DNA of 32,000 nt from Candidatus Nitrospira inopinata (GTDB lineage: Bacteria; Nitrospirota; Nitrospiria; Nitrospirales; Nitrospiraceae). Position numbers and translations under genes: made by a program. The stretch lies in contig NZ_LN885086.1 in assembly GCF_001458695.1 (NCBI RefSeq), forward strand, positions 450,001-482,000, read 5' to 3'. The notes beneath the pieces are model-generated. The model was not told the origin of the DNA. It was given only the letters and a program-made list of their open reading frames with translations, and searched no databases. Shown here one piece after another: positions 1,658 through 26,714 of this stretch (position 1 is its first letter; each line of letters opens with the position of its first letter).

Positions 1658-3100
1658 TTATTTAATACCTTGTCCCGTTGTTCTGGGCATGAACATTTCG
1701 AAGATGCTAGGTTCTCGCTCAGTATAATCAGGCGGGAAGAAGTTGAATCGCCGCCACAATTCATACCACAGCGGAACACGATTCAGAATGACCCAGCCCA
1801 AGACCTTCGTCCCTTGCCGAACCCGTGACTGGTCCGGCCATGGTTGAGAATCTTCCGGGTCCGGCACCACCCAAAATCTAAAATTGCCTTTGCCGTCGTC
1901 AATCTGATCGACGACTCGAATGATGCCGGTCCGAGTGCCCGCCATCAATTCAGGCCATGCCGGCAATGGAATCGCCGGAACCCCGAAGAAGAGAATTTTC
2001 ACCTTTCGCCCCGGCGTCAAGAGCGGGGCGTCCAATCCCTCGGCCCTCATTTCAATCGCAACGTCCTCCGCCTTGGGAGACAGTGTGACGAGCGTCTCTC
2101 CTTGCTTGACAGTTTCCATGATGCCGATCCTTGCCTGCCTGACCACGGTCCCATCCATCGTCGCATAAATCTTGGCCGCATCGATACGTTGTTGATTGTT
2201 CTGTAAGCGCACGGTCACATCCGCCAATTCATCCGCCGCCTTCGCGGCACTTGCAACAGCCTGGTCACGAGCTGCTTCCGCCTCTATCAACCGCTGCCAT
2301 ACCTCGGCGGAGACCTGATCTCGACCAAATGCCAATGCCGACCTTGCTTGTTCAGCAGCCTTGAGATTGGCCTGCGCGGCTTGCAGGGCGGCCTGGGCCG
2401 TCACCTCAGCTTGAATCGTCAACTCAAGTTCCCGTTGGGAAACCAAACCGTCCTTGACGAGCTGTCGGTGCCGATCGACGTTGAGCAGCGCTGTAGTCAA
2501 ATCGATTTTGGCCGCTTCAAGTTTTTGCTGGGCTTCACGCACTCTGTTCTCCGCCTCAACCACCCTCGCGTCGGCAGAAGGAACCGCGGCCTTGACTAAG
2601 TTCCTCATTTCTCCAATCCGCTTATTTAACTGCTCAGCTCTAGCCAGAGCCGCTTCCCGTTGCTGTTGCAGGGCGATCTTTCGCTGCTCCAACAGAGAAA
2701 TGAGTTCTGGCGCCATGAAATTCGGATCATAGTCTTCAAGCTCGGCGATGAGGTCGCCTTTCTTCACCGGCATGCCTTCATAGATGTGCCAGGCCTTCAG
2801 TCGACCGGTGATACGAGACTCTATGTTTTGCGGTCGTTCATATGGCGTGTACGCCGAGACTTTCCCCGTGGCGCTGATCGTCTGCGTCCACGGAACAAAC
2901 TCGACGATAATCAGTATTAGAAGAAGAATGGTTAACGTTACCCGCGATGAGCCGAGTAAACTTCTTGGCACCTTTACGGCCTGCCATGATGACATATTGG
3001 CCACACTGCCCATCATGTCGACATCAGCGGCCGCGATCCCTGGCCCCGGTTGTGATACCACAAGCGATCTTTCTTCTGAATTACCTTGTTGGCGAGCCAT
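1658..3100 (-). CDS. HlyD-family periplasmic adaptor (membrane fusion protein)
   Basis: 480 aa with an ATG start preceded by GGGAGG. It has a short cytoplasmic N-terminus and one TM helix (VTLTILLLILIIVEFV). A barrel-sandwich motif (ITGRLKAWHIYEGMPVKKGDLIAELED) is followed by a coiled-coil of about 200 aa rich in A/Q/E/R, then a C-terminal beta domain. This is the classic HlyD/T1SS adaptor architecture. Confidence 0.85.
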   Translation of the reverse strand: MARQQGNSEERSLVVSQPGPGIAAADVDMMGSVANMSSWQAVKVPRSLLGSSRVTLTILLLILIIVEFVPWTQTISATGKVSAYTPYERPQNIESRITGRLKAWHIYEGMPVKKGDLIAELEDYDPNFMAPELISLLEQRKIALQQQREAALARAEQLNKRIGEMRNLVKAAVPSADARVVEAENRVREAQQKLEAAKIDLTTALLNVDRHRQLVKDGLVSQRELELTIQAEVTAQAALQAAQANLKAAEQARSALAFGRDQVSAEVWQRLIEAEAARDQAVASAAKAADELADVTVRLQNNQQRIDAAKIYATMDGTVVRQARIGIMETVKQGETLVTLSPKAEDVAIEMRAEGLDAPLLTPGRKVKILFFGVPAIPLPAWPELMAGTRTGIIRVVDQIDDGKGNFRFWVVPDPEDSQPWPDQSRVRQGTKVLGWVILNRVPLWYELWRRFNFFPPDYTEREPSIFEMFMPRTTGQGIK

Positions 3101-3139
3101 GGAGCCTCCCTTAATTCGCTGTTACATGACAACGGTCAG

Positions 3140-4816
3140 TTACATATGGGCATGATGCAGCATCACACGGCGATCAGCATGATCCGTCAAGTTTGGATCA
3201 GTGGACACAAAAATCACCGACCAAGGTTCTTCTTTCGCACAGAGCCTGCGCAAGATTCTCTCTCGCAGCGATGGTTCTAGACTGTGAATGAGACCGTCGA
3301 AGATCAGAACTTGAGGTCGACCAAGAATAGCCCTCGCAAGAAGGATTTGGACGGCATGACTTGGAGAAATAGCTTCGCCCAGTTCCGAGATATCCGATTT
3401 GATGCCTTGAGGAAGAACATCGATATCTTCTTCGAGTTCTGTAAAACGGAGCGCCCATATAATGTCATCGTACGTAACGTAGGATCGTCCGAGCACGATG
3501 TTGTCTTCGATCGTCCCCTTCAGCAGAGAAAGCTGAGAATCGATCATGACGCTCCGACATTGGCTGAGGACGGTAGGATCGATGTATCGCAAATCAACCC
3601 CATTATATTGGACAACTCCGCTGGTCGGAGCCTCCAACCCGCCCAACACCCTGGCCAACGCCGTTTTTGCCGTGGTGGTACGAGCATAGATCCCAAGCTT
3701 TTCCCCCGGAGCAACATCCAAATTGAAACTATCAAACACAGGCGCTCCGTCATGAACCAGTCCCACGCTTTTACAGGTAACGCGAATCCCCTCATTCAGA
3801 TGTGAGGGCAATGCGACCGTCGACGCAGCGGGAAGCGGATCCCGCTGAAGTGAGAAGAAATCGCTCAGTTCCATGACGGCCGTAAAGAAATAATACACGT
3901 GGCCCATGTTTTTGATCAGTGAGTCAAAATTCAGCACTAACGCGCCAACCACCACTTCGGCGGCCACTAACTGACCGAGAGTCATTTGCCCCTGCGCCAT
4001 CAGCCACCCGGCGAGCGCGAGCGCACCGGCTTGCGCGACTGCTTGCCCGGAGACAGAACCGATGTACTGGCGCAACAAGACCCGAATTCTCGCCTTTCGA
4101 GTTTCGGTGTAGCGGTTAATAAGCTGGTCGGTCTTCTGCATGATCCAGGCGGAACTGTCCGTGGCCTTTAACTGCAAGACATTGCGCGAAATATCCTGCA
4201 TCCAATCGAAGACTTCATACTTGGCCTCGGCCATATCCATCGTCGTCCGCAACGCGCCACGGGAAAGAACAAAAAAGGTGATGGCGAAGCCGACCATCAG
4301 CAGCATGTCGTACACAAGAAAATAGGGGTGATAAATCACCAGCAGGGCCATGCCCACCGTCCCACCCACGACGACATTCACCAAGTCGATGAGGAGCGTG
4401 GACAAGGCACGTTGCATGAACACGATCTCAATAAAGCGATTGGCCGCTTCCGGCCTAAAGCCTTGGAAGCGATAGCGTGGAAGCTGTTGAGCCATGGCAA
4501 TGGCCACCCGAGCAAAGATCCGCCGCTGCACGATTTCAACCGCGTAGAAGTGAAACGTCTTGAACATGCCGACGAATAGCAAGACCGCCAGCATGATGCC
4601 GGTCAATGTCCAAATCATCACGGGCTGAACGGCATAGGAGAAGGTGCTGACGAGTTCTTGAACCGTTAAGGGAACAATAAGGGAGAACAGTCCGATCGCG
4701 AGAGCGTAGGCCAGGATGACGGTGAGCAATTTTTTCTCGACACGCGACCCTACAGAGAGCTGTCTCATCAGTGCTTGAAACAAGTTCGGATAGCTTGAAC
4801 CGTAAAGCTCTTTCAT
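3140..4816 (-). CDS. ABC exporter-fold protein (6-TM domain plus C-terminal NBD) with degenerate ATPase motifs
   Basis: The tracked ORF is 3140-4822 (GTG). I prefer the ATG at 4816 because AGGGGG lies 5 nt upstream. The N-terminal roughly 320 aa contain multiple hydrophobic helices typical of ABC_membrane. The C-terminal roughly 220 aa align by eye to HlyB-type NBDs, but the Walker A, signature, Walker B and H-loop positions are all altered (see findings). There is no N-terminal C39 peptidase or CLD domain. Confidence 0.8.
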   Translation of the reverse strand: MKELYGSSYPNLFQALMRQLSVGSRVEKKLLTVILAYALAIGLFSLIVPLTVQELVSTFSYAVQPVMIWTLTGIMLAVLLFVGMFKTFHFYAVEIVQRRIFARVAIAMAQQLPRYRFQGFRPEAANRFIEIVFMQRALSTLLIDLVNVVVGGTVGMALLVIYHPYFLVYDMLLMVGFAITFFVLSRGALRTTMDMAEAKYEVFDWMQDISRNVLQLKATDSSAWIMQKTDQLINRYTETRKARIRVLLRQYIGSVSGQAVAQAGALALAGWLMAQGQMTLGQLVAAEVVVGALVLNFDSLIKNMGHVYYFFTAVMELSDFFSLQRDPLPAASTVALPSHLNEGIRVTCKSVGLVHDGAPVFDSFNLDVAPGEKLGIYARTTTAKTALARVLGGLEAPTSGVVQYNGVDLRYIDPTVLSQCRSVMIDSQLSLLKGTIEDNIVLGRSYVTYDDIIWALRFTELEEDIDVLPQGIKSDISELGEAISPSHAVQILLARAILGRPQVLIFDGLIHSLEPSLRERILRRLCAKEEPWSVIFVSTDPNLTDHADRRVMLHHAHM

Positions 4817-4868
4817 GAACACCCCCTGTGATTTAAAAATGAGGGATCGGCCTTACCCTCCGGACCCC

Positions 4869-6467
4869 TTAATCACGTCCCTGCAGCTTTCGGCCTGACA
4901 AACCGGCCGCGGTGGCAGGATCACCGTACTTTACCAAAATATTATCGGGCACAGGCTTCGACAGCGCCCCCTTGGCCCACAAATAGCCGCCCCGTGCCAG
5001 GTCGTAATCATATTGTGCTTGATACAGCTCGTAGGCGGCCTCGACGGCGTTTCGCTCCCGTAGATTCACGAACAAGAGACTGGTGATACCCATGTCGAAT
5101 CGCTTCTGCTCACCGGCCAACAGGGTTTGCGCCAATTGATACGCTTCCTTAGCAGCCCTCACGCGGTCCCTGGCCCGCACGATGGCGGATACCCAGTTAT
5201 CAACGTCGAGGCTGACTTTTTGTTCGGCATTCCACAGGTCATACGTCAGTCGTTCTTGCTCGGCCTCTGCATGGGCCACCTTGCCACGGGCTTCCCGGTT
5301 GAACAACGGCATGCTGAGTACGGTTCCCACCCGGTAGCCAAATCCTCCTATCCAATAGATACCGCCGGTCGAACGTCCTCCTTCCAAAGTCAGTTTGGGA
5401 AGCAGTTTGTTCTTGGCCAACTTGAGATCAATGTTATTCATCCTGACGTCGATTGCCAGTTTCCGCACTTCCGGCCGATCTTCCTTGGCGGACACTTTCG
5501 CCTCGACGATTTCGTCTTCGGTCGGCAAGGGTGTTTCCCCCCCAAACTCCGGCGCCCACTCGGGGAGAGGCGTGATTGGTTCCTCCTTCTCCCAAAGGAA
5601 TAGAGACAGTTTGTACTGTTCATATTCCAATTTTCGCTGAGCGGCAATGGCGGCCTCTCGGCGCCGCTGGGCTTCTTGACCAGCTTCCACCACATCCAGT
5701 GGCGAGACCAATCCCGCCTTGGCTTGTCCTTCAATGAAAGCCAGCCGATCCTCTGCAACCCGCAACGCCTGTTTTTGAACATCAGCCTGCTTGACCGCAA
5801 GCTGCCAGTCCCAGTACTGTACGGCCCCGGCCAAGAAGAGATCTTGCCGAGTCTGAGCCACTTTCACCTCGGCCAGCGGCCCCGCGAGTTCGGCCTGCTG
5901 AAACTCAGCAAACTCATCGTTGATCATGAAGCCGCGCAGGAGATTGAATTCTCCACCAAAGATGGCCATTTGATTTGGGTAAAAAAGTTCGAGATCCTCA
6001 GGGAACGCCACAGGCCCTCCATGGGGAACACGAAAGATCGCCCCTGAGCTCGAAATCGTGGCCCGATCCCCAAAGCCATGGCGGATGCCGCCGAAAATAT
6101 TGAACCCATAGGGGTGCCCGACCTTGAGCATCGTATCGCTATAACCTCCCGTCAAGGTATTGGGCACACCTTGAACGTTCGTCAGATTCCACGTTTGAAA
6201 TCGGTCGACCTCAACCTCATTCTTTAGCTTTGGCTCCCACGCGCTCAACGCTTTCAGGACCTTTGCTCGAGCCTGCGCCCGCTCCAATCCGGTTGCGCGG
6301 ATCAGCGGGTGGGTCAACTCAATTCTGGCCAGCACCTCTTCAATGGTCAGCGGAGCGGTTCGCATCGGAGCCTGCCTCGATGATCCCATGGCCGTTGGGG
6401 CCTCAGCCAGGACGGTCACTGGTATCCAGACCAACGAGACTAACAACACTACCAACAAAGCGATCAC
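4869..6467 (-). CDS. TolC-family outer-membrane channel protein, paralog 1
   Basis: 532 aa with a GTG start preceded by GGGAG. The signal peptide MIALLVVLLVSLVWIPVTVLA/EAP contains no lipobox Cys. There are two long helical repeats rich in A/Q/E/R separated by short beta segments, as in the outer-membrane efflux protein family. It is about 60-70% identical by eye to the two upstream paralogs. Confidence 0.85.
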   Translation of the reverse strand: MIALLVVLLVSLVWIPVTVLAEAPTAMGSSRQAPMRTAPLTIEEVLARIELTHPLIRATGLERAQARAKVLKALSAWEPKLKNEVEVDRFQTWNLTNVQGVPNTLTGGYSDTMLKVGHPYGFNIFGGIRHGFGDRATISSSGAIFRVPHGGPVAFPEDLELFYPNQMAIFGGEFNLLRGFMINDEFAEFQQAELAGPLAEVKVAQTRQDLFLAGAVQYWDWQLAVKQADVQKQALRVAEDRLAFIEGQAKAGLVSPLDVVEAGQEAQRRREAAIAAQRKLEYEQYKLSLFLWEKEEPITPLPEWAPEFGGETPLPTEDEIVEAKVSAKEDRPEVRKLAIDVRMNNIDLKLAKNKLLPKLTLEGGRSTGGIYWIGGFGYRVGTVLSMPLFNREARGKVAHAEAEQERLTYDLWNAEQKVSLDVDNWVSAIVRARDRVRAAKEAYQLAQTLLAGEQKRFDMGITSLLFVNLRERNAVEAAYELYQAQYDYDLARGGYLWAKGALSKPVPDNILVKYGDPATAAGLSGRKLQGRD

Positions 6468-6491
6468 GAAGGATACTCCCTTGTTGTCGAA

Positions 6492-8057
6492 TTAATCGCG
6501 TCCAGACTTTTTGTAACCGTTCTTTCCTGCCGCCGTCAGAGGATCTCCATATTTCGCCAACACCACATCCCCTACCGGCTTCGACAAAGCCCCCCTCGCC
6601 AAGAGAAGGCCGCCCCGCGCCAAATCGTAATCGTACCGCGCTTGATAGAGTTCAAATGCCGCCTCAACGGCATTCTGTTCTCGCATATTCACAAATAAAA
6701 TACTGGAGATTCCCATATCGAATCGTTTCCTCTCTCCCTCTTCCAGCGCCTTGGCCAATCGGTAGGCTTCCGTCGCCGCCCTCACGCGGTCCCTGGCCCG
6801 CACAATGGCCGAGAGCCAGTTGTCCACATCGATGCTCACTTGCTGTTCAGCATACACTTGGCTCAAGACCAACTGTTGTTGCTCCGCCTCCGCATACAGA
6901 ACCTTCCCCCGGCCCTCCCGTTGGAAGAGCGGCATAGCAAACTGTGTCGCATAGCGATATCCCACGCCTACGATCCAGTCCGCAGGCGCATCCATTCGCC
7001 CTCCCTCAAAATCAAACTTGGGAAGCAAGTAGTTCTTAGCAAGTTTGAGATCGATGTTGTTCATCTTGGCTTCAATGTACAGGGCCCGCACCTCCGGCCG
7101 ATCTTCCTTCGCCTCCACTTTATAGGCTGCAATCTCTTCCTCGGTCGGCAGCGGCGTTTCGCCCTGAAATTCAGGCGCCCACTCCGGTCTCGGCGTCACA
7201 GGCTCGCCGTTCTCCCAGAGAAACAGCGACAATTTGTACTGCTCAAGCTCCACCTTCCGTTGCGCGGCTATGGCCGCCTCCCGCCGGCGTTGAACTTCCT
7301 GACCGATCTCGACCACATCGAGCGGCGACACCTTGCCCGCCTTGGCCTGCCCCTCAATCTGCTCAAAGCGAGCTTCCGCCACCGCCAAATTCTGCTTCCG
7401 CACCTCGGCCTGCTTGACCGCAAGTTGCCAATCCCAATACTGAATGGCGCCTGCGAGGTAGAGATCCTGCCGTTTCTGCGCTACCTTCACCTCCGCGAGT
7501 GGTCCCGCCAATTCGGCCTGCTGGAACTCGGCGTACTCATCATTGACCATCAACCCGCGCAGCAGATGGACAGAGCCACCCACAATAATCTGTTGCTGAG
7601 GATAGAAAAGCTGGAGATCAGGAATGAGCGCAACCGTCCCTCCCGATTGAGGAGGGGTCCCGACTATGCTGCGATCTCCAAAGCCGTTGCGGATGCCGCC
7701 CAGAATTCGGAAGCCCCAAGGGTGCCCCACTTCCAGCTTGGTATCGTTAAATCCTCCCGTCGAAACATGATCGTAAGCCAAGAAGTTCCAAATTTGGATG
7801 CGCGCGGTTTCTGTAATGTTCTTAACTGTCGGCTCCCATGCCCCGAGCGCCTTCAAGATTTTTGCCCGGGCCTGCTTCCGTTCAACTCCGGTCGCTCGAA
7901 GCAGGGGATGGGTCAACTCGATTCTGGCAAGGACTTCTTCGATAGTAAGCGGAGCAGTGCGCGTCTGCTGAAGCCGCACGATTCCTCCGTCTCCCCCCGA
8001 TTCCGCCAGCGTCACCACCGGAGACAAGATGAAAATCGCGAAAAAGAGAGCGATCAT
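6492..8057 (-). CDS. TolC-family outer-membrane channel protein, paralog 2
   Basis: The tracked ORF 6492-8111 overlaps the stop of paralog 3. I place the start at the ATG at 8057 (MIALFFAIFILSPVVTLA/ESG), by analogy with the MIAL N-termini of the other two copies and a GAAGG motif upstream. The domain pattern matches paralog 1. Confidence 0.85.
   Translation of the reverse strand: MIALFFAIFILSPVVTLAESGGDGGIVRLQQTRTAPLTIEEVLARIELTHPLLRATGVERKQARAKILKALGAWEPTVKNITETARIQIWNFLAYDHVSTGGFNDTKLEVGHPWGFRILGGIRNGFGDRSIVGTPPQSGGTVALIPDLQLFYPQQQIIVGGSVHLLRGLMVNDEYAEFQQAELAGPLAEVKVAQKRQDLYLAGAIQYWDWQLAVKQAEVRKQNLAVAEARFEQIEGQAKAGKVSPLDVVEIGQEVQRRREAAIAAQRKVELEQYKLSLFLWENGEPVTPRPEWAPEFQGETPLPTEEEIAAYKVEAKEDRPEVRALYIEAKMNNIDLKLAKNYLLPKFDFEGGRMDAPADWIVGVGYRYATQFAMPLFQREGRGKVLYAEAEQQQLVLSQVYAEQQVSIDVDNWLSAIVRARDRVRAATEAYRLAKALEEGERKRFDMGISSILFVNMREQNAVEAAFELYQARYDYDLARGGLLLARGALSKPVGDVVLAKYGDPLTAAGKNGYKKSGRD
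7045..7361 (-). repeat. 317-bp tract in TolC paralog 2, 316/317 identical to 8636-8952
   Basis: Direct comparison of the two stretches at a 1591-nt offset finds one mismatch (7253 C versus 8844 T). Flanking coding DNA of the same paralogs is only about 75-80% identical. Confidence 0.9.
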
Positions 8058-8082
8058 ATAATACGCCTTCGTTGCGGAATGA

Positions 8083-9636
8083 TTAATCACGTCCCGGCTG
8101 CTTGTACCCATTCATCCCCGCCGCAGTCAGAGGGTTTCCATACTTGACCAACACGGTGTCCGCCACCGGTTTCGACAAGGCTCCTATAGCCCAGAGGAGG
8201 CCGCCGCGTGCCACGGCATAGTCGGCTTGCGCCCGATACAATTTATAGGCTGTGTCCACAGCGTTGCGTTCCCGCAAGTTGACAAAGAGAATGCTTGACA
8301 GCCCCAGATCGAACCGCTTGCGCTCGCCCTCCTCCAATTCCTTGGCCAACCGGTATGATTCTGTAGCGGCTCTAACCCTGTCCCTGGCTCGCACGATCGC
8401 CGAGAGCCAATTGTCCACATCGAAGCTGACTTGCTGCTCGGTATATTGCTGCTTCAAGGCCAATTGCGCCAATCCCACCTCTGCTCCCATGACCTTCCCG
8501 CGGCCCTCCCGCTGGAACAGCGGCATTTCGAAATGAAGCCCGGTCCGGTAGCCGACTCCTACAATCCAGTCTGTAGCACCCTCGGTTGGCCCTCCTTCGA
8601 GGACCAATTTCGGCAGCAGTTTGTTTTTGGCCAGCTTGAGATCGATGTTGTTCATCTTGGCTTCAATGTACAGGGCCCGCACCTCCGGCCGATCTTCCTT
8701 CGCCTCCACTTTATAGGCTGCAATCTCTTCCTCGGTCGGCAGCGGCGTTTCGCCCTGAAATTCAGGCGCCCACTCCGGTCTCGGCGTCACAGGCTCGCCG
8801 TTCTCCCAGAGAAACAGCGACAATTTGTACTGCTCAAGCTCCATCTTCCGTTGCGCGGCTATGGCCGCCTCCCGCCGGCGTTGAACTTCCTGACCGATCT
8901 CGACCACATCGAGCGGCGACACCTTGCCCGCCTTGGCCTGCCCCTCAATCTGTTGATATCGAGCTTCGGCCACCGCCAGCGCCTGCTTCTGAACCTCCGC
9001 CTGCTTGACCGCCACCTGCCAATCCCAGTATTGGACGGCCCCCGCCAGATAGAGATCCTGCCGTTTCTGGGCCACCTTCACCTCCGCGAGCGGCCCAGCC
9101 AGTTCGGCCTGCTGGAACTCAGCGTTCTCTTCGTTGATGATCAAGCCACGCAAAAGTTGGAACGATCCGCCGAGAATAAGTTGCTGCTGAGGATAGAACA
9201 GTTGGAGATCGGGGATAATAGCAATAAAATTCTGGTTACCTCGATCCCCCATTCCATTTCGAATCCCGCCAACAACCTGGAACCCCCAGGGATGCCCCAC
9301 CTGGATTTTGGTGTCGTTAAATCCCCCAGTGTGGATCTTCGGTAAGAAGGGAGATGTCGTGAGATTCCACGTTTCATACCGTTCAATCTCTGTAATATTC
9401 TTGAGCGTGGGCTCCCAGGCTCCGAGCGCTTTCAGAACCTTCGCGCGAGCCTTCATTCGCTCGGCTCCGGTCGCCTGAAGCAGGGGGTGGGTCAACTCGA
9501 TTCTGGCGAAGACTTCTTCAATCGTGAGAGGAGCGGTGCGGGTGGCCTGATTCTGCGCGGTCCTCGAATCGCTTACCGGTTCCGCCAGTGCGATCATCGG
9601 CGTCGAGATGAGCACGACCAGCAGCAGGGCGATCAC
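8083..9636 (-). CDS. TolC-family outer-membrane channel protein, paralog 3
   Basis: The tracked ORF runs to 9801, but the first 55 codons are basic and low-complexity. A GTG at 9636 lies 7 nt after AAAGGAG and gives (M)IALLLVVLISTPMIALA/EPV, matching the other two paralogs. This start leaves a normal divergent intergenic region with the LysR gene. Confidence 0.8.
   Translation of the reverse strand: MIALLLVVLISTPMIALAEPVSDSRTAQNQATRTAPLTIEEVFARIELTHPLLQATGAERMKARAKVLKALGAWEPTLKNITEIERYETWNLTTSPFLPKIHTGGFNDTKIQVGHPWGFQVVGGIRNGMGDRGNQNFIAIIPDLQLFYPQQQLILGGSFQLLRGLIINEENAEFQQAELAGPLAEVKVAQKRQDLYLAGAVQYWDWQVAVKQAEVQKQALAVAEARYQQIEGQAKAGKVSPLDVVEIGQEVQRRREAAIAAQRKMELEQYKLSLFLWENGEPVTPRPEWAPEFQGETPLPTEEEIAAYKVEAKEDRPEVRALYIEAKMNNIDLKLAKNKLLPKLVLEGGPTEGATDWIVGVGYRTGLHFEMPLFQREGRGKVMGAEVGLAQLALKQQYTEQQVSFDVDNWLSAIVRARDRVRAATESYRLAKELEEGERKRFDLGLSSILFVNLRERNAVDTAYKLYRAQADYAVARGGLLWAIGALSKPVADTVLVKYGNPLTAAGMNGYKQPGRD
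8636..8952 (-). repeat. 317-bp tract in TolC paralog 3, 316/317 identical to 7045-7361
   Basis: Partner of the 7045-7361 tract. It encodes the shared peptide ...GQAKAGKVSPLDVVEIGQEVQRRREAAIAAQRK.ELEQYKLSLFLWENGEPVTPRPEWAPEFQGETPLPTEEEIAAYKVEAKEDRPEVRALYIEAKMNNIDLK... Confidence 0.9.
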
Positions 9637-9787
9637 GAGGATGCTCCTTTCGTATGTATGTCGCGTGTGTCTCTGGCGCGGCGGGAGAGTAGCAATCACG
9701 GCCCTTTTATGAAAAATAGATAAAACGGATTGGAATCTTCGTGAAAGACGATGTATAGTGGATGCGCCACTTTTCGACGCAAACCGT

Positions 9788-10684
9788 ATGGAATGGCTCA
9801 ACTATCACCATTTGCTGTACTTTTGGTCCGTCGCCAAGCACGGCACGGTCGCTAAGGCTTGCGAGGAGCTTCGCCTCGCTCAGCCGACCATCAGCGGACA
9901 GATCCGGCTCCTGGAACAATCCTTGGGGGAAAAATTGTTCGTGCGCACGGGACGCCGACTCGCGTTGACCGAGATGGGACACGTGGTGTTCGGATACGCG
10001 GAAGCCATCTTCGCCATGGGGCAAGAGTTGCTGAACACGGTGAAAGGACGTGCGGAGGGGCACCAGGCACGCCTGGTCGTCGGCATCGCCGACGTCGTGC
10101 CCAAACCGCTGGCGAATCATCTTCTCCGAGCGGGACTAAACTTGGATCAGCCCATGCACTTGGTTTGCCAAGAGGACAAACTGCATCGGCTCCTGGCCGA
10201 CTTGACGATGCACCGATACGACCTTGTCATCTCCGACACGCCCGCGCCGCCGAACTTCAAGGTGCACGCCTACAGCCACCCCATCGGCGAATCGGGGGTG
10301 ACGTTCTTCGGCACGTCGAAATTGGCATCGCTTTATCGGCGTGAGTTTCCTCGGTCACTGCACGGCGCCCCGATGCTCCTGCCTACCGCCGATGCAGCCC
10401 TTCGCCGATCGATCGATCAATGGTTGGTCCACCACCGCCTCCACCCCACCATCGTGGGCGAGTTCGACGACAGCGCGACGCTCAAGGCCTTTGGGCAGGA
10501 GGGATTCGGCATTTTCCCCGGCGTGACCGCAATGGAAAAGGAAATCTGCCGCCAATATAGGGTCTCGGCCATCGGCAAGCTGGATTCCGTCAAACAGCAC
10601 TTTTATGCGATCACCGTCGAGCGCCGTCTCAAACATCCGGCGGTGCTGGCGATCGTCCAAGCGGCCCGACGGGAGCTGGACTGA
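9788..10684 (+). CDS. LysR-family transcriptional regulator, NhaR-like
   Basis: The tracked ORF starts at 9758. The ATG at 9788 gives MEWLNYHHLLYFWSVAKHGTVAKACEELRLAQPTISGQIRLLEQSLGEKLF. That closely parallels the E. coli NhaR N-terminus (INYNHLYYFWHV...QTITGQIRALEE..GKLF) and the later GEFDDSA.LKAFG and HPAV motifs. It is divergent from the TolC/ABC/HlyD operon. Confidence 0.85.
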   Translation: MEWLNYHHLLYFWSVAKHGTVAKACEELRLAQPTISGQIRLLEQSLGEKLFVRTGRRLALTEMGHVVFGYAEAIFAMGQELLNTVKGRAEGHQARLVVGIADVVPKPLANHLLRAGLNLDQPMHLVCQEDKLHRLLADLTMHRYDLVISDTPAPPNFKVHAYSHPIGESGVTFFGTSKLASLYRREFPRSLHGAPMLLPTADAALRRSIDQWLVHHRLHPTIVGEFDDSATLKAFGQEGFGIFPGVTAMEKEICRQYRVSAIGKLDSVKQHFYAITVERRLKHPAVLAIVQAARRELD

Positions 10685-11481: not shown

Positions 11482-12432
11482 TTACAAGGCGGGAGATGAC
11501 TCGCGAACAAGCTTTGCGGCCTTGATGCGGCCGAGCATGCGATAGATCAACCGAGCCACCGAAAACTGGGGGGCCACAAACCCGTCAATAGGGGTCATTT
11601 CACTTACGTCCATCCCCACGATACCGGGGCCTCCGGCGAGGGCGGCGACCAGATTCAGCGTGTCGTACCAGCCCAACCCGCCCGGCTCGGGAGTGCCCAG
11701 CGCGGGAACGATGGAAGGATCAAGCCCATCGCAGTCGAACGTAAGATACACCGGGCCGTTGCAAGCGGCCACGACGTCGGGAATCCATCGGGAGGCCTGC
11801 CCGCCGTAGGGGCCGGAGGGATCCAAGAGGCTTGCGGCGAAAAACGTGGTGATCCGGTCCGTCGCCTTCATTCGAATCATCTCTTCCCCGCTGATCGACC
11901 GTATGCCGACCTGGACCAACGGATGCCCGTCCTCCACCACCCTGGCCATGACGCTGGCGTGGCTGAACGGGTTGCCTTGGTAGGCCTCGCGCAGATCGCC
12001 GTGCGCGTCAATCTGCACGACGCACATGTTCGGATGGCGCCGGGCGTGGGCGCGGATGGCTCCCAATGCGCCGGTATGTTCCCCGGTCAACGTCACGAGA
12101 AATCGCCCGGCCTCGACGTGCGGACGAACGAACTGCTCGATGGCGGCGACGGCGGCCCGATCTACTTCGCCTTTCAGATCCAGAGCCGACGCCGTGGCAA
12201 TACCGCCCCACTCACGAAAGGGTTCACATTCAAGTTGCTCATCATACAGCTCGACCTGGCGGGATGCTTCAAGAATGGCGGAGGGGCCGTGATCCGATCC
12301 TCGGACATAGCTGGACGTATGTTCGTACGGAACCGGCAGGACGTAGACACCGGCCCGATCCGGATGGCACCACGGTTCTTCGAGGCCGAGAAAATTGTGC
12401 TCCGGCCCTTCCCATCCGGCTGGCAACGTCAT
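11482..12432 (-). CDS. speB: Agmatinase (arginase/ureohydrolase family)
   Basis: The tracked ORF extends to 12753, but its first 107 codons are R/S-rich and overlap the pdaD coding region. The ATG at 12432 gives MTLPAGWEGPEHNFLGLEEP... The Mn-binding ureohydrolase motifs are present: GGEHT-like (LTGEHTGALG), QIDAHGDL and FDCDGLDPS. Confidence 0.85.
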   Translation of the reverse strand: MTLPAGWEGPEHNFLGLEEPWCHPDRAGVYVLPVPYEHTSSYVRGSDHGPSAILEASRQVELYDEQLECEPFREWGGIATASALDLKGEVDRAAVAAIEQFVRPHVEAGRFLVTLTGEHTGALGAIRAHARRHPNMCVVQIDAHGDLREAYQGNPFSHASVMARVVEDGHPLVQVGIRSISGEEMIRMKATDRITTFFAASLLDPSGPYGGQASRWIPDVVAACNGPVYLTFDCDGLDPSIVPALGTPEPGGLGWYDTLNLVAALAGGPGIVGMDVSEMTPIDGFVAPQFSVARLIYRMLGRIKAAKLVRESSPAL

Positions 12433-12490
12433 GGCATGCGTCCTTATTATCAAGCCCTGGTCAAACTGAAGCGTCAGAACGGCGCGCCCG

Positions 12491-13060
12491 CTATCGGCGA
12501 TACCGCTTGGCCACGTTCTCGCCCGGAATGAAGACCGCGAGCGCGATGACCGTCGTCCACTTGCCGGCCTTGCCGATCGCCGACTGAGTGATGTTCGACG
12601 TTTTGACGATTTTGCCGCCCATCTTAAACACTTGCTCGCGCTCCTTCCAGGCGACGTTGGGATCAAATTCCAACCCCAGCGTAGTGGCCAACATCTGAGC
12701 CGCGAGATCTTCCGTGTACTCGCCGGTTTCCTCGTCCGTCTCGCCGTGGGCATGGTGTTCGGACAAGTAGCCGTAGCTGTTCCGGTCCGTCGGTTTCGCC
12801 AGACCGACCGAGGCCGAAATCAACCGATTCCGTTCGTTGGTTTCGGAACGGGCCATCACGCAGAACGTGATTTCCCCGGGACTCAACAGTTTCTCCCCCC
12901 GATTCCGCGAGATGATTTTGCAATTGGGCGGCAAAATGGACGACACGCTGACGAGATTGCAGTAGGCAACCCCCGCGCTTCGCAACGCCTCCTCGAAAGA
13001 GGCCAGTTTCTCCTTGTGCACGCCCACTCCTCTCGTCAAAAACATGTGCGTCGGTACCAT
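12491..13060 (-). CDS. pdaD: Pyruvoyl-dependent arginine decarboxylase (PdaD family)
   Basis: 189 aa with an ATG preceded by GGGAG. The pattern [24 protein letters not shown] matches the PdaD self-cleavage region (the Ser-Ser site that generates the pyruvoyl group). It sits immediately upstream of agmatinase. Confidence 0.75.
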
Positions 13061-17158: not shown

Positions 17159-17236
17159 TGGTGGTCCCAACGGGATTCGAACCCGTGTTTAAGCCTTGAG
17201 AGGGCTCCGTCCTAGGCCAGGCTAGACGATGGGACC
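17159..17236 (-). tRNA. tRNA-Glu (anticodon CUC), CCA encoded
   Basis: The minus strand reads GGTCCCATCGTCTAGCCTGGCCTAGGACGGAGCCCTCTCAAGGCTTAAACACGGGTTCGAATCCCGTTGGGACCACCA. It folds as a cloverleaf with a 7-bp acceptor stem, the GTTCGAATC T-loop and the anticodon loop CTCTCAA. It resembles E. coli tRNA-Glu. Confidence 0.9.
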
Positions 17237-21902: not shown

Positions 21903-21976
21903 AGGAGGATAATGGCTGGGGGACTAGGAATCGAACCTAGGTAGCCAGCTCCAAAGGCTGGCGTCCTACCGCTAGA
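21903..21976 (-). tRNA. tRNA-Gln (anticodon UUG), CCA encoded
   Basis: The minus strand reads TGGGGGATCGTCTAGCGGTAGGACGCCAGCCTTTGGAGCTGGCTACCTAGGTTCGATTCCTAGTCCCCCAGCCA. The anticodon loop is CTTTGGA. U1-A72 and G73 match E. coli tRNA-Gln. Confidence 0.9.
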
Positions 21977-22037
21977 CGATCCCCCAGCGTCGTTGATGCA
22001 ATTATGGATGGCGAAGCCGAACGCTTTCTTCGATGAT

Positions 22038-22111
22038 TGGCTGGGGGACTAGGAATCGAACCTAGGTAGTCAGATCCAGAGTCTGACGTCCTACCGCTAG
22101 ACGATCCCCCA
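22038..22111 (-). tRNA. tRNA-Gln (anticodon CUG), CCA encoded
   Basis: The minus strand reads TGGGGGATCGTCTAGCGGTAGGACGTCAGACTCTGGATCTGACTACCTAGGTTCGATTCCTAGTCCCCCAGCCA. The anticodon loop is CTCTGGA. It is identical to the UUG isoacceptor except for 5 positions in the anticodon arm. Confidence 0.9.
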
Positions 22112-25026: not shown

Positions 25027-25500
25027 ATGCTGAAACTTTCCAAAAAAGCTGATTACGCGCTGATGGCCCTTCAACACATTGCCTCCGTTCAGTTCGGCGA
25101 TGTGACGCCGGGTCGCGTCGTCAATACCAAGGAGATTGCCGAAGAATACAACATCCCTCTGGAGCTGTTGGCCAAGGTGCTCCAAACCCTCTCCAAAAAC
25201 GGTATGATCGAAAGCCATAACGGTCCCAAGGGAGGGTACCTGCTGGCCAGGAGCGCGCGGCACATCACGATCGCGCAGATTCTCGAAAGCATCGAGGGCC
25301 CGTTGGGCCTGACCGACTGTTCCCATGAGAAAACCGGCGAGTTGTGCATGCAGCGGGAACATTGCAACATCCGCACGCCGTTGCTCAAGATCCAAGACAG
25401 TATTTATCAATTGCTCAACAACATGACCTTGCAAGACATGCTGAGCGGAACGCCGCTCATCACGATTCAGTCGCCGTCAGCGGAAGGAGTCGACCGATGA
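25027..25500 (+). CDS. iscR: Rrf2-family Fe-S cluster assembly regulator IscR
   Basis: 157 aa. [19 protein letters not shown] is the Rrf2 winged-helix N-terminus. The three-Cys region is [17 protein letters not shown]. It is the first gene of the isc operon, and its stop overlaps the iscS ATG (ATGA). Confidence 0.85.
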
Positions 25501-26714
25501 AGCTTCCGATTTTCCTTGATAACCATTCGACCACGCCGATGGACCCCAGGGTCCTGGAGGCCATGCTCCCCTATTTTGTCGAGAAATTCGGCAACGCCGC
25601 GAGCCGCAATCACGCGTTCGGGTGGGAAGCGGAAGAAGCGGTGGAACAGGCCCGCAAACACATCGCCAAACTGATCAACGCCGACGCCAAGGAAATCGTC
25701 TTCACCAGCGGCGCCACCGAATCGGACAACCTGGCGCTCAAGGGCGTGCTGGAAATGTATCGCGAGAAGGGGACCCACATCGTCACGTCGTCCACGGAAC
25801 ATCGGGCCGTGTTGGACACGGCCAAATCGCTGGAGGCCAAAGGCTTGGCGACGGTCACCTACCTGCCGGTCGACAAGTACGGGATGGTCAACCCCGACGA
25901 CGTGCGGAATGCGATCACGGACAAGACCATTTTGATTTCGGTCATGCTGGCCAACAATGAGATCGGCACGATCAACCCCGTCCACGAAATCGGGAAAATC
26001 GCGAAGGCCAAGGGCGTGCTGTTCCATTGCGACGCCACGCAGGGCGTCGGCAAGATTCCGGTGGACGTCCAGGCCATGGGAATCGACTTGATGTCGTTCT
26101 CGGCCCATAAGATTTACGGTCCCAAAGGGGTCGGCGCCCTGTACGTCAGAAAGAAAAATCCGCGCGTGAGGCTCGTGCCTCAGATGGACGGCGGCGGACA
26201 CGAACGAGGGATGAGATCCGGTACCCTGCCGGTTCCCTTGATCGTAGGCTTCGGCAAGGCCTGCGAGCTGTGCGGAGCGGAAATGGCGACGGAAGCGCCG
26301 CGCATCGCCGCCATGCGCGACCGGCTCCAAACCGCGATCATGAACGCATTGGAAGAAAGCTATTTGAACGGCCACCCCACCGAGCGGTTGCCGGGCAACC
26401 TCAATATTTCCTTCGCCTACGTCGAAGGTGAATCGTTGCTGATGGGCATGAAGGACATCGCGCTTTCGTCCGGCTCGGCCTGCACGTCGGCGACGCTGGA
26501 GCCGTCGTACGTGCTGCGCGCCTTGGGCGTCGGAACGGAGCTGGCGCACTCGTCCATCCGCTTCGGCCTGGGCCGCTTCAATACCGACGAGGAAATCGAC
26601 TACGCCATTAAGAAAGTGATCGAGGTCGTGACCAGACTGCGGGAAATGTCCCCGCTCTACGAGATGGCAAAGGAAGGCATCGATCTGAAATCCGTGCAGT
26701 GGGCTGCACATTGA
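25497..26714 (+). CDS. iscS: Cysteine desulfurase IscS
   Basis: The ATG at 25497 lies after GGAAGGAG. The 51 codons upstream in the track overlap iscR. The N-terminus is [27 protein letters not shown]. The PLP lysine motif [12 protein letters not shown] and the active-site SSGSACTS are present. Confidence 0.95.

Follow-up and report, generated by a model that had tools for sequence, protein, structure and literature searches.

Among described systems, the closest counterparts of the Nitrospira operon examined here are HlyB-HlyD-TolC and PrtD-PrtE-PrtF, both of which have the same three-component architecture, and PrtDEF-type systems resemble it further in lacking an N-terminal C39 or CLD domain and in carrying the outer-membrane factor (OMF) gene inside the operon. 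From these HlyB/PrtD type I systems the Nitrospira family differs in having neither the catalytic Glu, the H-loop His nor the LSGGQ signature (239 sequences), in that no component reaches a curated cut-off (the ABC protein scores 101-130 bits against 510-725), and in encoding three OMF paralogues with no RTX or other cargo gene found nearby. The NHLP/NHLM bacteriocin export cassette (TIGR03796/TIGR03797 plus HlyD) provides the top NCBIfam models for the ABC protein, but the scores of 128-131 bits fall far below the cut-offs of 709-853, and the Nitrospira locus has no peptidase domain, paired second ABC protein or NHLP/Nif11 precursor genes. SbmA and BacA, which are related to ABC exporter membrane domains and are driven by the proton gradient with no ATP hydrolysis, offer a precedent for powering such a domain by other means, but SbmA is an importer with no nucleotide-binding domain (NBD) and no adaptor or TolC partner. 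The same degenerate-site hallmarks, with the ATP-binding residues kept, are known from TM287/288, TmrAB, IrtAB and the eukaryotic ABCC/TAP proteins (PMC7756269, PMC7544095), but heterodimeric exporters always retain one consensus site from the partner chain, whereas in Nitrospira the degenerate elements all reside in a single gene. In CFTR (ABCC7) the ABC exporter fold works as a nucleotide-gated channel whose degenerate site keeps ATP for minutes unhydrolysed (PMC7756269), which is the functional analogy for the mechanism proposed below; it differs in being a eukaryotic single polypeptide that still has one hydrolytic site, by which the channel is closed, and that has no periplasmic adaptor or outer-membrane duct. 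Finally, a type I secretion-like SecA_DEAD/Peptidase_M50/HlyD/GAF module reported in Nitrospirae and other phyla (Kamneva et al. 2015, PMC4452313) likewise has a non-standard inner-membrane and energy component, but it contains no ABC protein and uses a secondary SecA_DEAD and an M50 peptidase-like membrane protein, neither of which is found in the Nitrospira operon.

In the window (the whole 32-kb stretch analysed, from Candidatus Nitrospira inopinata), a tight run of five genes on the minus strand, with gaps of 25, 24, 52 and 39 nt, comprises three TolC paralogues in tandem (OEP1-OEP3), followed by the genes for an ABC half-transporter of HlyB fold and an adaptor of the HlyD family (Table 1). 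An ATG start at 4816 gives the ABC protein the same length as its homologues; a GTG at 4822 is also open and would shorten the preceding gap from 52 to 46 nt. A purine-rich GGAG-like site lies 5' of each of the five genes, and that of OEP1, which starts with GTG at 9636, reads AAGGAG. The tight spacing and the single downstream hairpin (-30.9 kcal/mol by RNAfold) suggest that the five genes form one transcript with its probable end at the hairpin; no clear T-run was found there, so termination itself is an inference. The initial annotation had recognised this compact run, with its ribosome-binding sites, end hairpin and divergent NhaR-like LysR gene, as the parts list of a tripartite ABC or type I secretion machine; its coordinates and domains were reproduced, and profile-HMM domains and structure matches both agree with that description.

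Table 1. Features of the operon and its divergent regulator (window coordinates).
Feature	Position	Strand	Evidence
GC-rich hairpin after the HlyD stop codon	1619..1648 (about)	-	sequence and RNAfold
HlyD-family periplasmic adaptor, 480 aa	1658..3100	-	Pfam Biotin_lipoyl_2 and HlyD_3
HlyB-fold ABC half-transporter, 558 aa, NBD predicted hydrolysis-incompetent	3140..4816	-	Pfam ABC_tran, 34 bits
OEP3, TolC-family paralogue, 532 aa, adjoins ABC gene	4869..6467	-	Pfam OEP, 126.9 bits
OEP2, TolC-family paralogue, 521 aa	6492..8057	-	Pfam OEP, 128.5 bits
OEP1, TolC-family outer-membrane factor paralogue, 517 aa	8083..9636	-	Pfam OEP, 121 bits
Divergent regulatory region	9637..9787	.	alignment of 46 Nitrospira loci
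NhaR-type LysR regulator, divergent	9788..10684	+	NCBIfam NF008284

The OEP genes are tandem triplicates that recur about every 1.6 kb (DNA identity 61-83%, protein identity 67-77%, with OEP2 and OEP1 77% identical), and their best family match, type_I_sec_TolC, reaches 49-61 bits against a cut-off of 225. OEP3 forms a separate clade among Nitrospira OEPs, and OEP2 clusters with OEP1 in the sublineage of the window and separately in the main sublineage. An AlphaFold2 model of OEP3 (pLDDT 71.8) was most similar to TolC (7ng8/1ek9), ST50 and CmeC, and OEP1 has a signal peptide and no lipobox. That three OMF genes in one operon are unusual was borne out, and the arrangement is conserved, not accidental: the three occur in fixed order in 44 Nitrospiraceae loci, with OEP1 as the leading gene of the run. 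All three share the periplasmic tip motifs GQAKAG(K/L)VSPLDV and KRFD(L/M)G(L/I)(S/T)S(I/L)LFVN, and their variable segments fall mainly on predicted strands and loops of the barrel and surface; with near-identical tips and variation concentrated elsewhere, they would therefore be expected to dock onto the same HlyD adaptor, whether mixed in one trimer or as homotrimers that can replace one another. The adaptor has an N-terminal transmembrane segment and lipoyl, coiled-coil and barrel regions, its best NCBIfam match (type_I_hlyD, 61.7 bits) stays below the cut-off of 209, and synteny between its gene and that of the ABC protein holds in more than 70 loci.

The ABC protein consists of six transmembrane helices and an NBD, reaches no NCBIfam cut-off and scores only weakly with Pfam. 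Its AlphaFold2 model (pLDDT 77.4) matched HlyB of the HlyB/D complex best in the PDB (8dck, TM-score 0.86-0.87), with PrtD (5l22) also among the fold matches. Motif states were read from an alignment of 239 sequences, the window protein and 238 relatives. The residue after the Walker B Asp is Gly in 236 of them and Glu in none, the H-loop His is found in 0/239, and the LSGGQ signature is absent (the window protein reads ISPSH), its second Gly missing consistently across the family. At the D-loop position, normally Ser, 229 of the 239 have His (His513), and either His or Gln occupies position 489. Of the three Walker A glycines, two are replaced family-wide, and the third is Ala in the lineage of the window and Gly in about half of the family; these replacements may weaken or abolish nucleotide binding. 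Still retained are the Walker A Lys (235/239) and Thr/Ser (224/239), a nearly invariant Walker B Asp, the Q-loop Gln (204/239) and an A-loop Tyr (112/239) or His (103/239), although the Walker A Lys or the Q-loop Gln is lost as well in a few deep relatives (P0122, P0123). The alignment thus confirms degeneration, but the initial annotation overstated it in claiming that every catalytic ATPase motif had been lost, because the Mg-ATP-binding residues (Walker A Lys-Thr, Walker B Asp, Q-loop Gln and A-loop) are kept and only the catalytic Glu, H-loop His and LSGGQ are gone. Degenerate sites that do not hydrolyse ATP are recognised by their missing Walker B Glu (PMC7544095, PMC7756269). Judging from the residues kept and lost, ATP bound without hydrolysis is the likeliest state of this NBD. 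The absence of a C39 or CLD domain, also flagged as anomalous, holds but is not anomalous on its own, since PrtD-type type I ABC proteins lack both as well.

Purifying selection on the dead NBD is strong and matches that on the membrane domain: dN/dS is 0.009-0.047 in both, and mean identity to the window protein is 65% in the NBD against 60% in the membrane domain. The membrane domain keeps HlyB-type exporter hallmarks such as PLTVQELV and GQLTLGQ, and its helices are highly conserved.

The LysR gene, with an ATG at 9788, matches the NCBIfam NhaR equivalog NF008284 at 240.6 bits (cut-off 219) and is separated from OEP1 by 151 nt, in which the intergenic alignment revealed a block of about 47 nt (9713-9759) conserved at 80% or more. 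Within it lies a LysR-type T-N11-A box at about 9738-9752, reading ATCG-N7-CGAA in the window and ATCG-N7-CGAT in the consensus. The gene is present in the three-OEP loci whose contigs extend far enough, and the window copy is 46-54% identical to LysR genes adjoining distant ABC-HlyD-OEP operons.

Searches of species-representative genomes returned 314 relatives, the best 80 of which all belong to Nitrospira, Nitrospiraceae or Nitrospirales, and the survey confirmed that synteny of a degenerate ABC gene with HlyD and multiple TolC genes is conserved across Nitrospiraceae. Complete loci of the form RluF/LysR/OEPx3/ABC/HlyD/purE numbered 33, in addition to partial ones, and at least 15 others had the form purE/HlyD/OEP/ABC/RluF; a sister lineage combines HlyD-OEP-ABC with a conserved fourth gene for a small membrane sensor-like four-helix-bundle protein (4HB_MCP_1). 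The nearest relatives outside, in Planctomycetota, Acidobacteriota and Myxococcota, are likewise single ABC-HlyD-OEP operons (49 of 80 loci; in a further 21, many of them on short contigs, ABC-HlyD occurs and no OEP was detected). Their NBD motifs range from canonical through dead, with many degenerate, in a set biased towards degenerate members by retrieval with a profile built from degenerate sequences. The arrangement is therefore not a one-off, but one lineage of a wide, unnamed single-ABC/HlyD/OEP clade in which catalytic degeneration is frequent. Recurrent neighbours of the related operons are an SbtA-like transporter, a beta-carbonic anhydrase and a Na+/H+ exchanger; an orthologous LysR, Sbt_1 or Pro_CA gene adjoins 17 of the outside loci, 15 of which belong to the 48 whose upstream sequence exceeds 2.5 kb. 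This association with Na+ and bicarbonate genes was seen in distant relatives and is absent from the main Nitrospira locus.

Beyond this gene, the window encodes no ABC domain, and it has no ORF in which GGxGxD recurs; a Pfam scan of the large flanking ORFs brought up no domain suggestive of a cargo. The related loci, surveyed over about 20 kb each, agree with the initial annotation that no cargo gene lies in or beside the operon, and they place no canonical ABC partner next to it; either could possibly be encoded elsewhere in the genome. No published description of the operon was found in the literature, and the orthologous operons, none of which we found characterised under a known name, support the earlier view that the combination is not a described system.

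The machine has its homologues in type I secretion systems such as HlyB-HlyD-TolC and in tripartite efflux systems of the ABC type. We lean, with modest confidence, towards a conserved and functional envelope-spanning machine of Nitrospira in which the NBD would bind ATP but not usefully hydrolyse it, acting as a gate and not as a motor. Because no second ABC gene lies nearby, the half-transporter is presumably a homodimer, and since its single gene carries all of the degenerate elements, both sites of that dimer would be dead. To judge from the retained residues, the NBD would bind Mg-ATP with no useful rate of hydrolysis and serve as a nucleotide-dependent dimerisation or gating module, and the substrate would pass the HlyD/TolC duct down its electrochemical gradient or with energy from some other source, a logic closer to that of the ATP-gated channel CFTR or the proton-driven, ABC-like SbmA than to that of a pump.

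An ordinary ATP-hydrolysing type I system with a rewired catalytic site and an unlinked protein or peptide substrate would also account for the conserved nucleotide-contacting residues and for a fold and operon layout resembling HlyB/PrtD. Such rewiring is entertained because of the near-universal His513 at the D-loop Ser position and the His/Gln at 489, either of which might act in trans, and type I substrates can be encoded apart from their transporter. We nevertheless regard it as unlikely, as the general base, the H-loop His and the second signature Gly are all missing together, consistently across the family, and no candidate substrate, RTX-like or other, was found in the window or beside related loci; in canonical exporters mutation of the Walker B Glu alone abolishes transporter function (PMC7756269). 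If the motor is gone, strong selection could instead be maintaining a non-transporting assembly on the TolC-HlyD-ABC frame, whether it serves as tether or scaffold or senses ATP or a ligand, which would suit the multiplied OMF copies with their variable surface loops and the sensor-like fourth gene of the sister lineage. However, the exporter hallmarks and helices of the membrane domain and the TolC tip motifs required for duct opening are intact, and we know of no precedent for such an assembly, which seems to us quite unlikely.

Nor does it seem at all probable that the ABC protein forms a heterodimeric exporter, as its degenerate half, with a catalytically competent partner from another part of the genome. 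Partner genes are normally adjacent in such systems, but none adjoins in about 80 Nitrospira and 80 outside loci, and where a second ABC copy does adjoin (L087) both are degenerate. The chains of TmrAB, TM287/288 and IrtAB are among the best structural matches, and it is common for a heterodimeric exporter to have one degenerate site (PMC7756269); this chain, however, with its dead Walker B/H-loop and its dead signature, would disable both composite sites. That the ABC gene is a pseudogene decaying along with its operon, as the weak Pfam and NCBIfam scores and degenerate motifs might suggest, is effectively refuted by the invariance of the degenerate residues themselves and by dN/dS of 0.01-0.05; the frame is moreover intact at 554-562 aa in hundreds of genomes, and synteny is kept.

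For the gated conduit that we favour, the regulator type and the recurrent neighbours give a weak lead towards a role in Na+, pH, inorganic-carbon or small-solute homeostasis and not in toxin secretion. A type I secretion-like machine has been conserved in Nitrospira although its ABC motor is without the residues for ATP hydrolysis.

Gene calls, Pfam assignments and folding energy agreed with the initial annotation in placing five close-packed minus-strand genes in the window, closed by a hairpin and faced by a divergent LysR gene. By Pfam, an ABC exporter, a membrane fusion protein and TolC-family outer-membrane factors (OMFs) are encoded jointly in this single run, with spacers of 25, 24, 52, and 39 nt, a GGAG-like site 5' of every gene, and the hairpin (-30.9 kcal/mol) just 3' of the stop codon of the HlyD adaptor gene. 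The LysR gene diverges from the three OMF genes (OEP1, OEP2, and OEP3) across a shared intergenic region of 151 nt, and its assignment to the NhaR type was upheld by a score of 240.6 bits against the NhaR equivalog model NF008284 (cut-off 219), with residues 11-302 aligned to model positions 1-288 of 299. Alignment of the LysR-OEP1 intergenic region from 46 loci revealed a conserved block of ~47 nt holding ATCG-N7-CGAT, a T-N11-A LysR box. Because the block with its box is conserved over these 46 loci, we infer that the divergent LysR would control the OEP-ABC-HlyD run through this putative box.

Features of the window, and of related loci where indicated
Feature	Position	Strand	Basis or remark
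HlyD-like adaptor	1658-3100	-	Pfam HlyD_3/Biotin_lipoyl_2
ABC protein	3140-4816	-	Pfam ABC_tran; ATG start gives 558 aa, as in all homologues
OEP3	4869-6467	-	Pfam OEP
OEP2	6492-8057	-	Pfam OEP
OEP1	8083-9636	-	Pfam OEP
Putative LysR box	~9738-9752		conserved intergenic block
NhaR-type LysR gene	ATG 9788 to 10684	+	NCBIfam NF008284 equivalog
purE	HlyD side of the operon		Pfam scan of flanking ORFs
Pseudouridine synthase, agmatinase-family gene, pyruvoyl arginine decarboxylase, aldehyde dehydrogenase, DsbA, GlnRS, GluRS, DnaK, PBP	far-side flank
Arginase/agmatinase-family ORF	11482-12753	-	open for 423 aa
Pyruvoyl arginine decarboxylase	12491-13060
tRNA genes (three)	17162-17236, 21916-21986, 22041-22111	-	two in tandem directly upstream of the GluRS gene
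Overlapping opposite-strand long ORFs, 456 aa (+) and 414 aa (-)	25344-26714	+/-	minus-strand ORF without Pfam match
~255-aa 4HB_MCP_1 gene, L001	11680-12456
~255-aa 4HB_MCP_1 gene, L087	9729-10517
~255-aa 4HB_MCP_1 gene, L088	9780-10544

The ~340-nt gap between HlyD and purE contained two short overlapping ORFs and nothing more, and the equivalent gap at a related locus (L002) has no called gene. On the other flank, the first ~110 residues of the arginase/agmatinase-family ORF are Arg/Ser-rich and its homologues are called at 310 aa; its true start is probably near position 12420, and with the pyruvoyl arginine decarboxylase it looks like a polyamine synthesis pair. The three tRNAs were the only Rfam features of the window.

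The ABC protein had been described as apparently having lost every catalytic ATPase motif, a statement that held for some motifs of the NBD and failed for others. In the window protein the Walker A reads A-R-T-T-T-A-K-T (canonical G-x-x-G-x-G-K-S/T), the signature I-S-P-S-H (canonical L-S-G-G-Q), the Walker B F-D-G (canonical D-E), and the H-loop V-S-T-D-P (VSTDPNL) where the canonical form has His; the A-loop carries His357 in place of an aromatic residue and the Q-loop retains its canonical Gln (Gln430). When the protein was aligned with 238 full-length relatives, the residue after the Walker B Asp was Gly in 236 of the 239 sequences and Glu in none, and neither the H-loop His nor LSGGQ occurred in any, so that a proper alignment bore out the degeneration rather than restoring intact motifs. 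Retained were the Walker A Lys and the Walker B Asp (235/239 each), the Walker A Thr/Ser (224/239), and the Q-loop Gln (204/239), with Tyr (112/239) or His (103/239) at the A-loop position; the last Walker A Gly is kept in about half of the family, and those members match or nearly match the minimal P-loop [AG]x4GK[ST]. A catalytically competent NBD, with Walker B Asp-Glu, H-loop His, LSGGQ, and GxxGxGK[ST], is therefore not what this protein has. As read from these sequences, the predicted Mg-ATP contact residues are retained in the family and the hydrolysis residues are gone. Degenerate sites in heterodimeric exporters show the same combination (PMC7756269, PMC7544095), but since it lies here on a single chain, a homodimer would have two dead sites. 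Mean identity to the window protein was 65% for the NBD versus 60% for the membrane domain, and dN/dS against close orthologues was 0.009-0.047 in both domains; the NBD, being at least as conserved as the membrane domain at such low dN/dS, is therefore functional rather than decaying.

Pfam ABC_tran (34 bits) was the sole domain detected in the ABC protein, and no curated NCBIfam cut-off was approached: it scored 101-120 bits against cut-offs of 510-725 (TIGR01846/01842/03375), the HlyD adaptor 61.7 against 208.65 (TIGR01843), and the OEPs 49-61 against 225.15 (TIGR01844), leaving NhaR as the only component to pass a named-family cut-off and every other match far below. The profile and structure searches proposed in the initial annotation nevertheless placed the operon proteins in the expected families, with HlyB and TolC folds for the ABC protein and OEP3, respectively. 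The ABC protein was modelled with AlphaFold2 from 61 family sequences (pLDDT 77.4). Six long TM helices joined by short periplasmic loops are followed by the NBD at the C-terminus, and the best Foldseek match of the model was HlyB in the HlyB/D complex 8dck (E 1e-24, TM 0.86-0.87), followed by TmrAB, PCAT1, IrtAB, and PrtD 5l22; the protein is accordingly modelled as an inner-membrane exporter of the HlyB/PrtD (type IV) fold. Only ~30 residues, with a short amphipathic helix among them in the model, precede TM1, and no Peptidase_C39 or C39-like domain was matched there, in keeping with the reported lack of a C39 peptidase or CLD domain and at odds with a PCAT/bacteriocin exporter. When the PDB was searched by sequence, the ABC protein matched only generic ABC exporters, HlyD gave a single weak match to MacA, and the OEP gave none.

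OEP1, OEP2, and OEP3 form a tandem triplication that repeats every ~1.6 kb (61-83% DNA and 67-77% protein identity), and each protein contains two stretches matching Pfam OEP (121-128 bits). The OEP3 model (pLDDT 71.8) matches TolC 7ng8/1ek9, so that two repeats, the TolC fold in the OEP3 model, and tip motifs in all three paralogues mark them as TolC-type OMFs. The occurrence of three OMF genes in one operon, which the initial annotation had singled out, was not confined to the window, as it was found at 44 loci; the loci with two or four OEPs come from metagenome-assembled genomes and may therefore be artefacts of collapsed or expanded repeats, for which reason their copy numbers were not interpreted. 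In distance clustering OEP3 formed its own clade, whereas OEP1 and OEP2 were separate in the main sublineage and clustered together in that of the window, a pattern compatible with gene conversion or later duplication. The three proteins share nearly the same sequence at both periplasmic tip motifs, and all three should therefore, from sequence, dock onto the same adaptor. The assembly could be either a mixed trimer or alternative homotrimers; just 10 sites show fixed differences between the paralogue groups, a number too small to weigh for or against a heterotrimer. Variation was concentrated at OEP3 residues ~80-165 and 357-385, the strand/loop segments of its model. The segment between helices 2 and 3 of the first TolC repeat (OEP3 residues ~75-183 and the equivalents in OEP1 and OEP2, window 4869-9636) is ~70 aa longer than what we take to be its length in E. 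coli TolC. AlphaFold2 gave it, at low confidence (pLDDT 35-70), four strands and a disordered loop, versus two strands in the second repeat, and in this model the extra segment could form a surface hairpin or cap.

All named homologues of the ABC protein belonged to Nitrospira, Nitrospiraceae, or Nitrospirota, and of 314 relatives found in a scan of species-representative genomes the best 80 were all from these taxa. The neighbourhood survey called for in the initial annotation, in which six window proteins were mapped onto 83 loci, defined two architectures at one chromosomal position: 1) Type A, with ABC proteins at least 68% identical and the window included, in the order RluF / divergent LysR / OEP1-OEP2-OEP3 / ABC / HlyD / purE, and 2) Type B, with ABC proteins ~60% identical, in the order purE / HlyD / one OEP / ABC / RluF. 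The synteny of the degenerate ABC gene with HlyD and three OEPs was conserved at 33 complete Type A loci, with partial ones besides. At the Type B loci with gene calls examined, a conserved gene of ~255 aa directly follows the ABC gene, and its product has a 4HB_MCP_1 four-helix bundle set between two TM segments and ends in a short tail; this sister-lineage protein has no homologue in the window. In some Nitrospira genomes (L041, L046, L053, and L058, in the first ~5 kb of each locus) the three-OEP operon has beside it another degenerate ABC gene, more divergent at 59% identity and accompanied by an oppositely oriented HlyD gene and, in the last three, by a second LysR gene. Deeper paralogues were found as orphans, for example P0381 in a Na+/H+ exchanger-Usp-ABC run (L084, 8366-11659). 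In that run the start of the ABC gene shares 4 nt with the end of the Usp gene, and neither an HlyD nor an OEP gene lies nearby.

A wider search of 1.84 billion library representatives found only three full-length clusters (P0121-P0123) scoring with the family, at 578-678 bits and all degenerate; the next scores were at most 369 bits and belonged mostly to HlyB/LssB/NHLM-like proteins of 700-760 aa, together with shorter ones of ~550-620 aa. The N-terminal extension of the longer proteins (~180 aa) had no Pfam match even at E = 5. Among the 145 nearest full-length representatives, a ranking biased by a query profile built from degenerate sequences, only 27 combined GK[ST] with the catalytic Glu and the H-loop His, and 69 lacked both Glu and His. 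A metagenome scan with 24 outside proteins as queries yielded 80 loci, of which 49 were single ABC-HlyD-OEP operons, 21 were ABC-HlyD pairs in which no OEP was detected (the contig being short in many cases), and five had all three genes but arranged differently or accompanied by an additional ABC ORF; a second ABC ORF occurred at four of the 80 (three short NBD-only ORFs and one 178-aa fragment adjoining the main gene). The ABC proteins of the 80 loci range from canonical to fully dead in their motifs, and their named sources are Gemmataceae, Planctomycetota, Acidobacteria bacterium Mor1, and Myxococcota. An NhaR-like LysR gene (nine loci), an Sbt_1 Na+-dependent bicarbonate transporter-family gene (six), or a beta-carbonic anhydrase gene (four) lay near 17 of the 80 loci, two of which carry two of the three; 15 of the 17 belonged to the 48 loci at which upstream sequence extended beyond 2.5 kb, and the ABC gene was degenerate in all 17. 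The carbonic anhydrase gene (L122, L129, L152, L161) immediately precedes the degenerate ABC gene and shares its strand, and the Sbt_1/SbtA-family gene is nearby at L107, L129, L146, L157, L158, and L167; in such distant relatives these neighbours are hints of a link to inorganic-carbon or Na+ handling. The window LysR was 43-54% identical to eight of these outside LysR genes (46-54% if the seven matches of full length are taken alone), against only ~30-34% between the ABC proteins. Given the outside operons with single ABC, HlyD, and OEP genes, the Nitrospira system is one lineage of a broad unnamed clade, and the LysR-ABC-HlyD-OEP module predates Nitrospira.

Full-text searches of the literature found no description of this system, in agreement with the initial annotation, which had not recognised the combination. 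The closest in build and working is PrtDEF/HlyBD-TolC, but the window operon fails the catalytic test and every curated cut-off and was for these reasons not filed under those families. In MacAB-TolC and DevBCA pumps the periplasmic domain is large and the ATPase either separate or N-terminal, in contrast to the six-helix HlyB-type protein of the window with its short periplasmic loops and C-terminal NBD, which does not have the type VII (MacB) fold. NHLP bacteriocin export ABC2 (TIGR03797) was rejected on 130.7 bits against 709.4 and for want of an ABC1 peptidase subunit and a second ABC gene, and the SecA_DEAD/M50/HlyD module (PMC4452313), the one published type I-like module of Nitrospirae known to us, has different components.

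Partner chains of heterodimeric exporters are normally encoded adjacently. The 32-kb window contained no second ABC domain, and no consensus-site partner was seen at the Nitrospira or outside loci surveyed, so a heterodimer with one degenerate site and an adjacently encoded partner was rejected, and related loci did not reveal the window arrangement as a local rearrangement beside a canonical partner. In Nitrospira sp. Kam-Ns4a (L087, OZ224218; 2972-10517; order HlyD-OEP-ABC-ABC-4HB) the tandem ABC genes are 63% mutually identical and both degenerate; a gene for the inorganic carbon pump DabA lies immediately upstream on the opposite strand. With no such chain at the surveyed loci and a doubly degenerate pair where two genes do stand together, we regard a canonical partner encoded at a distant site as very unlikely. 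The claim that no cargo gene lies in or beside the operon also survived: no window ORF had two or more GGxGxD repeats, Pfam scans of flanking ORFs returned housekeeping genes alone, and no candidate substrate recurred beside the 80 related loci, though a substrate may be encoded elsewhere in the genome. A rewired ATPase exporting an unlinked protein substrate is unlikely, and a non-transporting structural or sensory assembly somewhat more so. Decay into a pseudogene, to which we give practically no probability, is ruled out by dN/dS and by the invariance of the degenerate residues.

To our knowledge, all tripartite TolC-dependent machines characterised so far draw their energy from the inner-membrane partner; those of the ABC type use ATP hydrolysis, and the RND and MFS types the proton gradient. 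In the reading that we favour, the NBD would bind ATP without turning it over and act as a dimerisation or gating module, with some other source, or the gradient of the substrate itself, driving flux through the HlyD/TolC duct; CFTR and SbmA are the analogues. The type of regulator and the genes adjoining the relatives weakly suggest a small solute or ion tied to Na+, pH, or inorganic carbon. The most specific version would be a widespread and so far unrecognised class of conduits in which an HlyB-type ABC dimer, a hydrolysis-independent nucleotide-gated channel switched on by an NhaR-type Na+/pH-responsive regulator, lets a small anion or other ion leave the cytoplasm directly for the exterior by way of HlyD and TolC for Na+, bicarbonate, or pH homeostasis, with a heterotrimeric three-paralogue duct in Nitrospira; taken whole, we consider it decidedly improbable. 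We know of no described heterotrimeric TolC-family duct and of no tripartite system without an energy-transducing inner-membrane pump.

The system, known here from sequence and models, is solidly real and would surprise specialists in ABC transport and type I secretion: the hydrolytic residues are uniformly missing, yet the NBD is among the most constrained parts of the protein, and a nitrifier genus of global importance has conserved the arrangement, with the operons of Planctomycetota, Acidobacteriota, and Myxococcota trending likewise. If the ABC protein truly works without ATP hydrolysis, nature would have provided a case in which to ask what nucleotide binding minimally does in an ABC exporter and how a TolC duct can be operated without a motor, and the fixed set of three TolC paralogues offers a chance to test the formation of mixed OMF trimers. 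For the biology of Nitrospira, the operon represents an unstudied, regulator-controlled envelope system whose chromosomal neighbourhood is the same at most of the loci examined.
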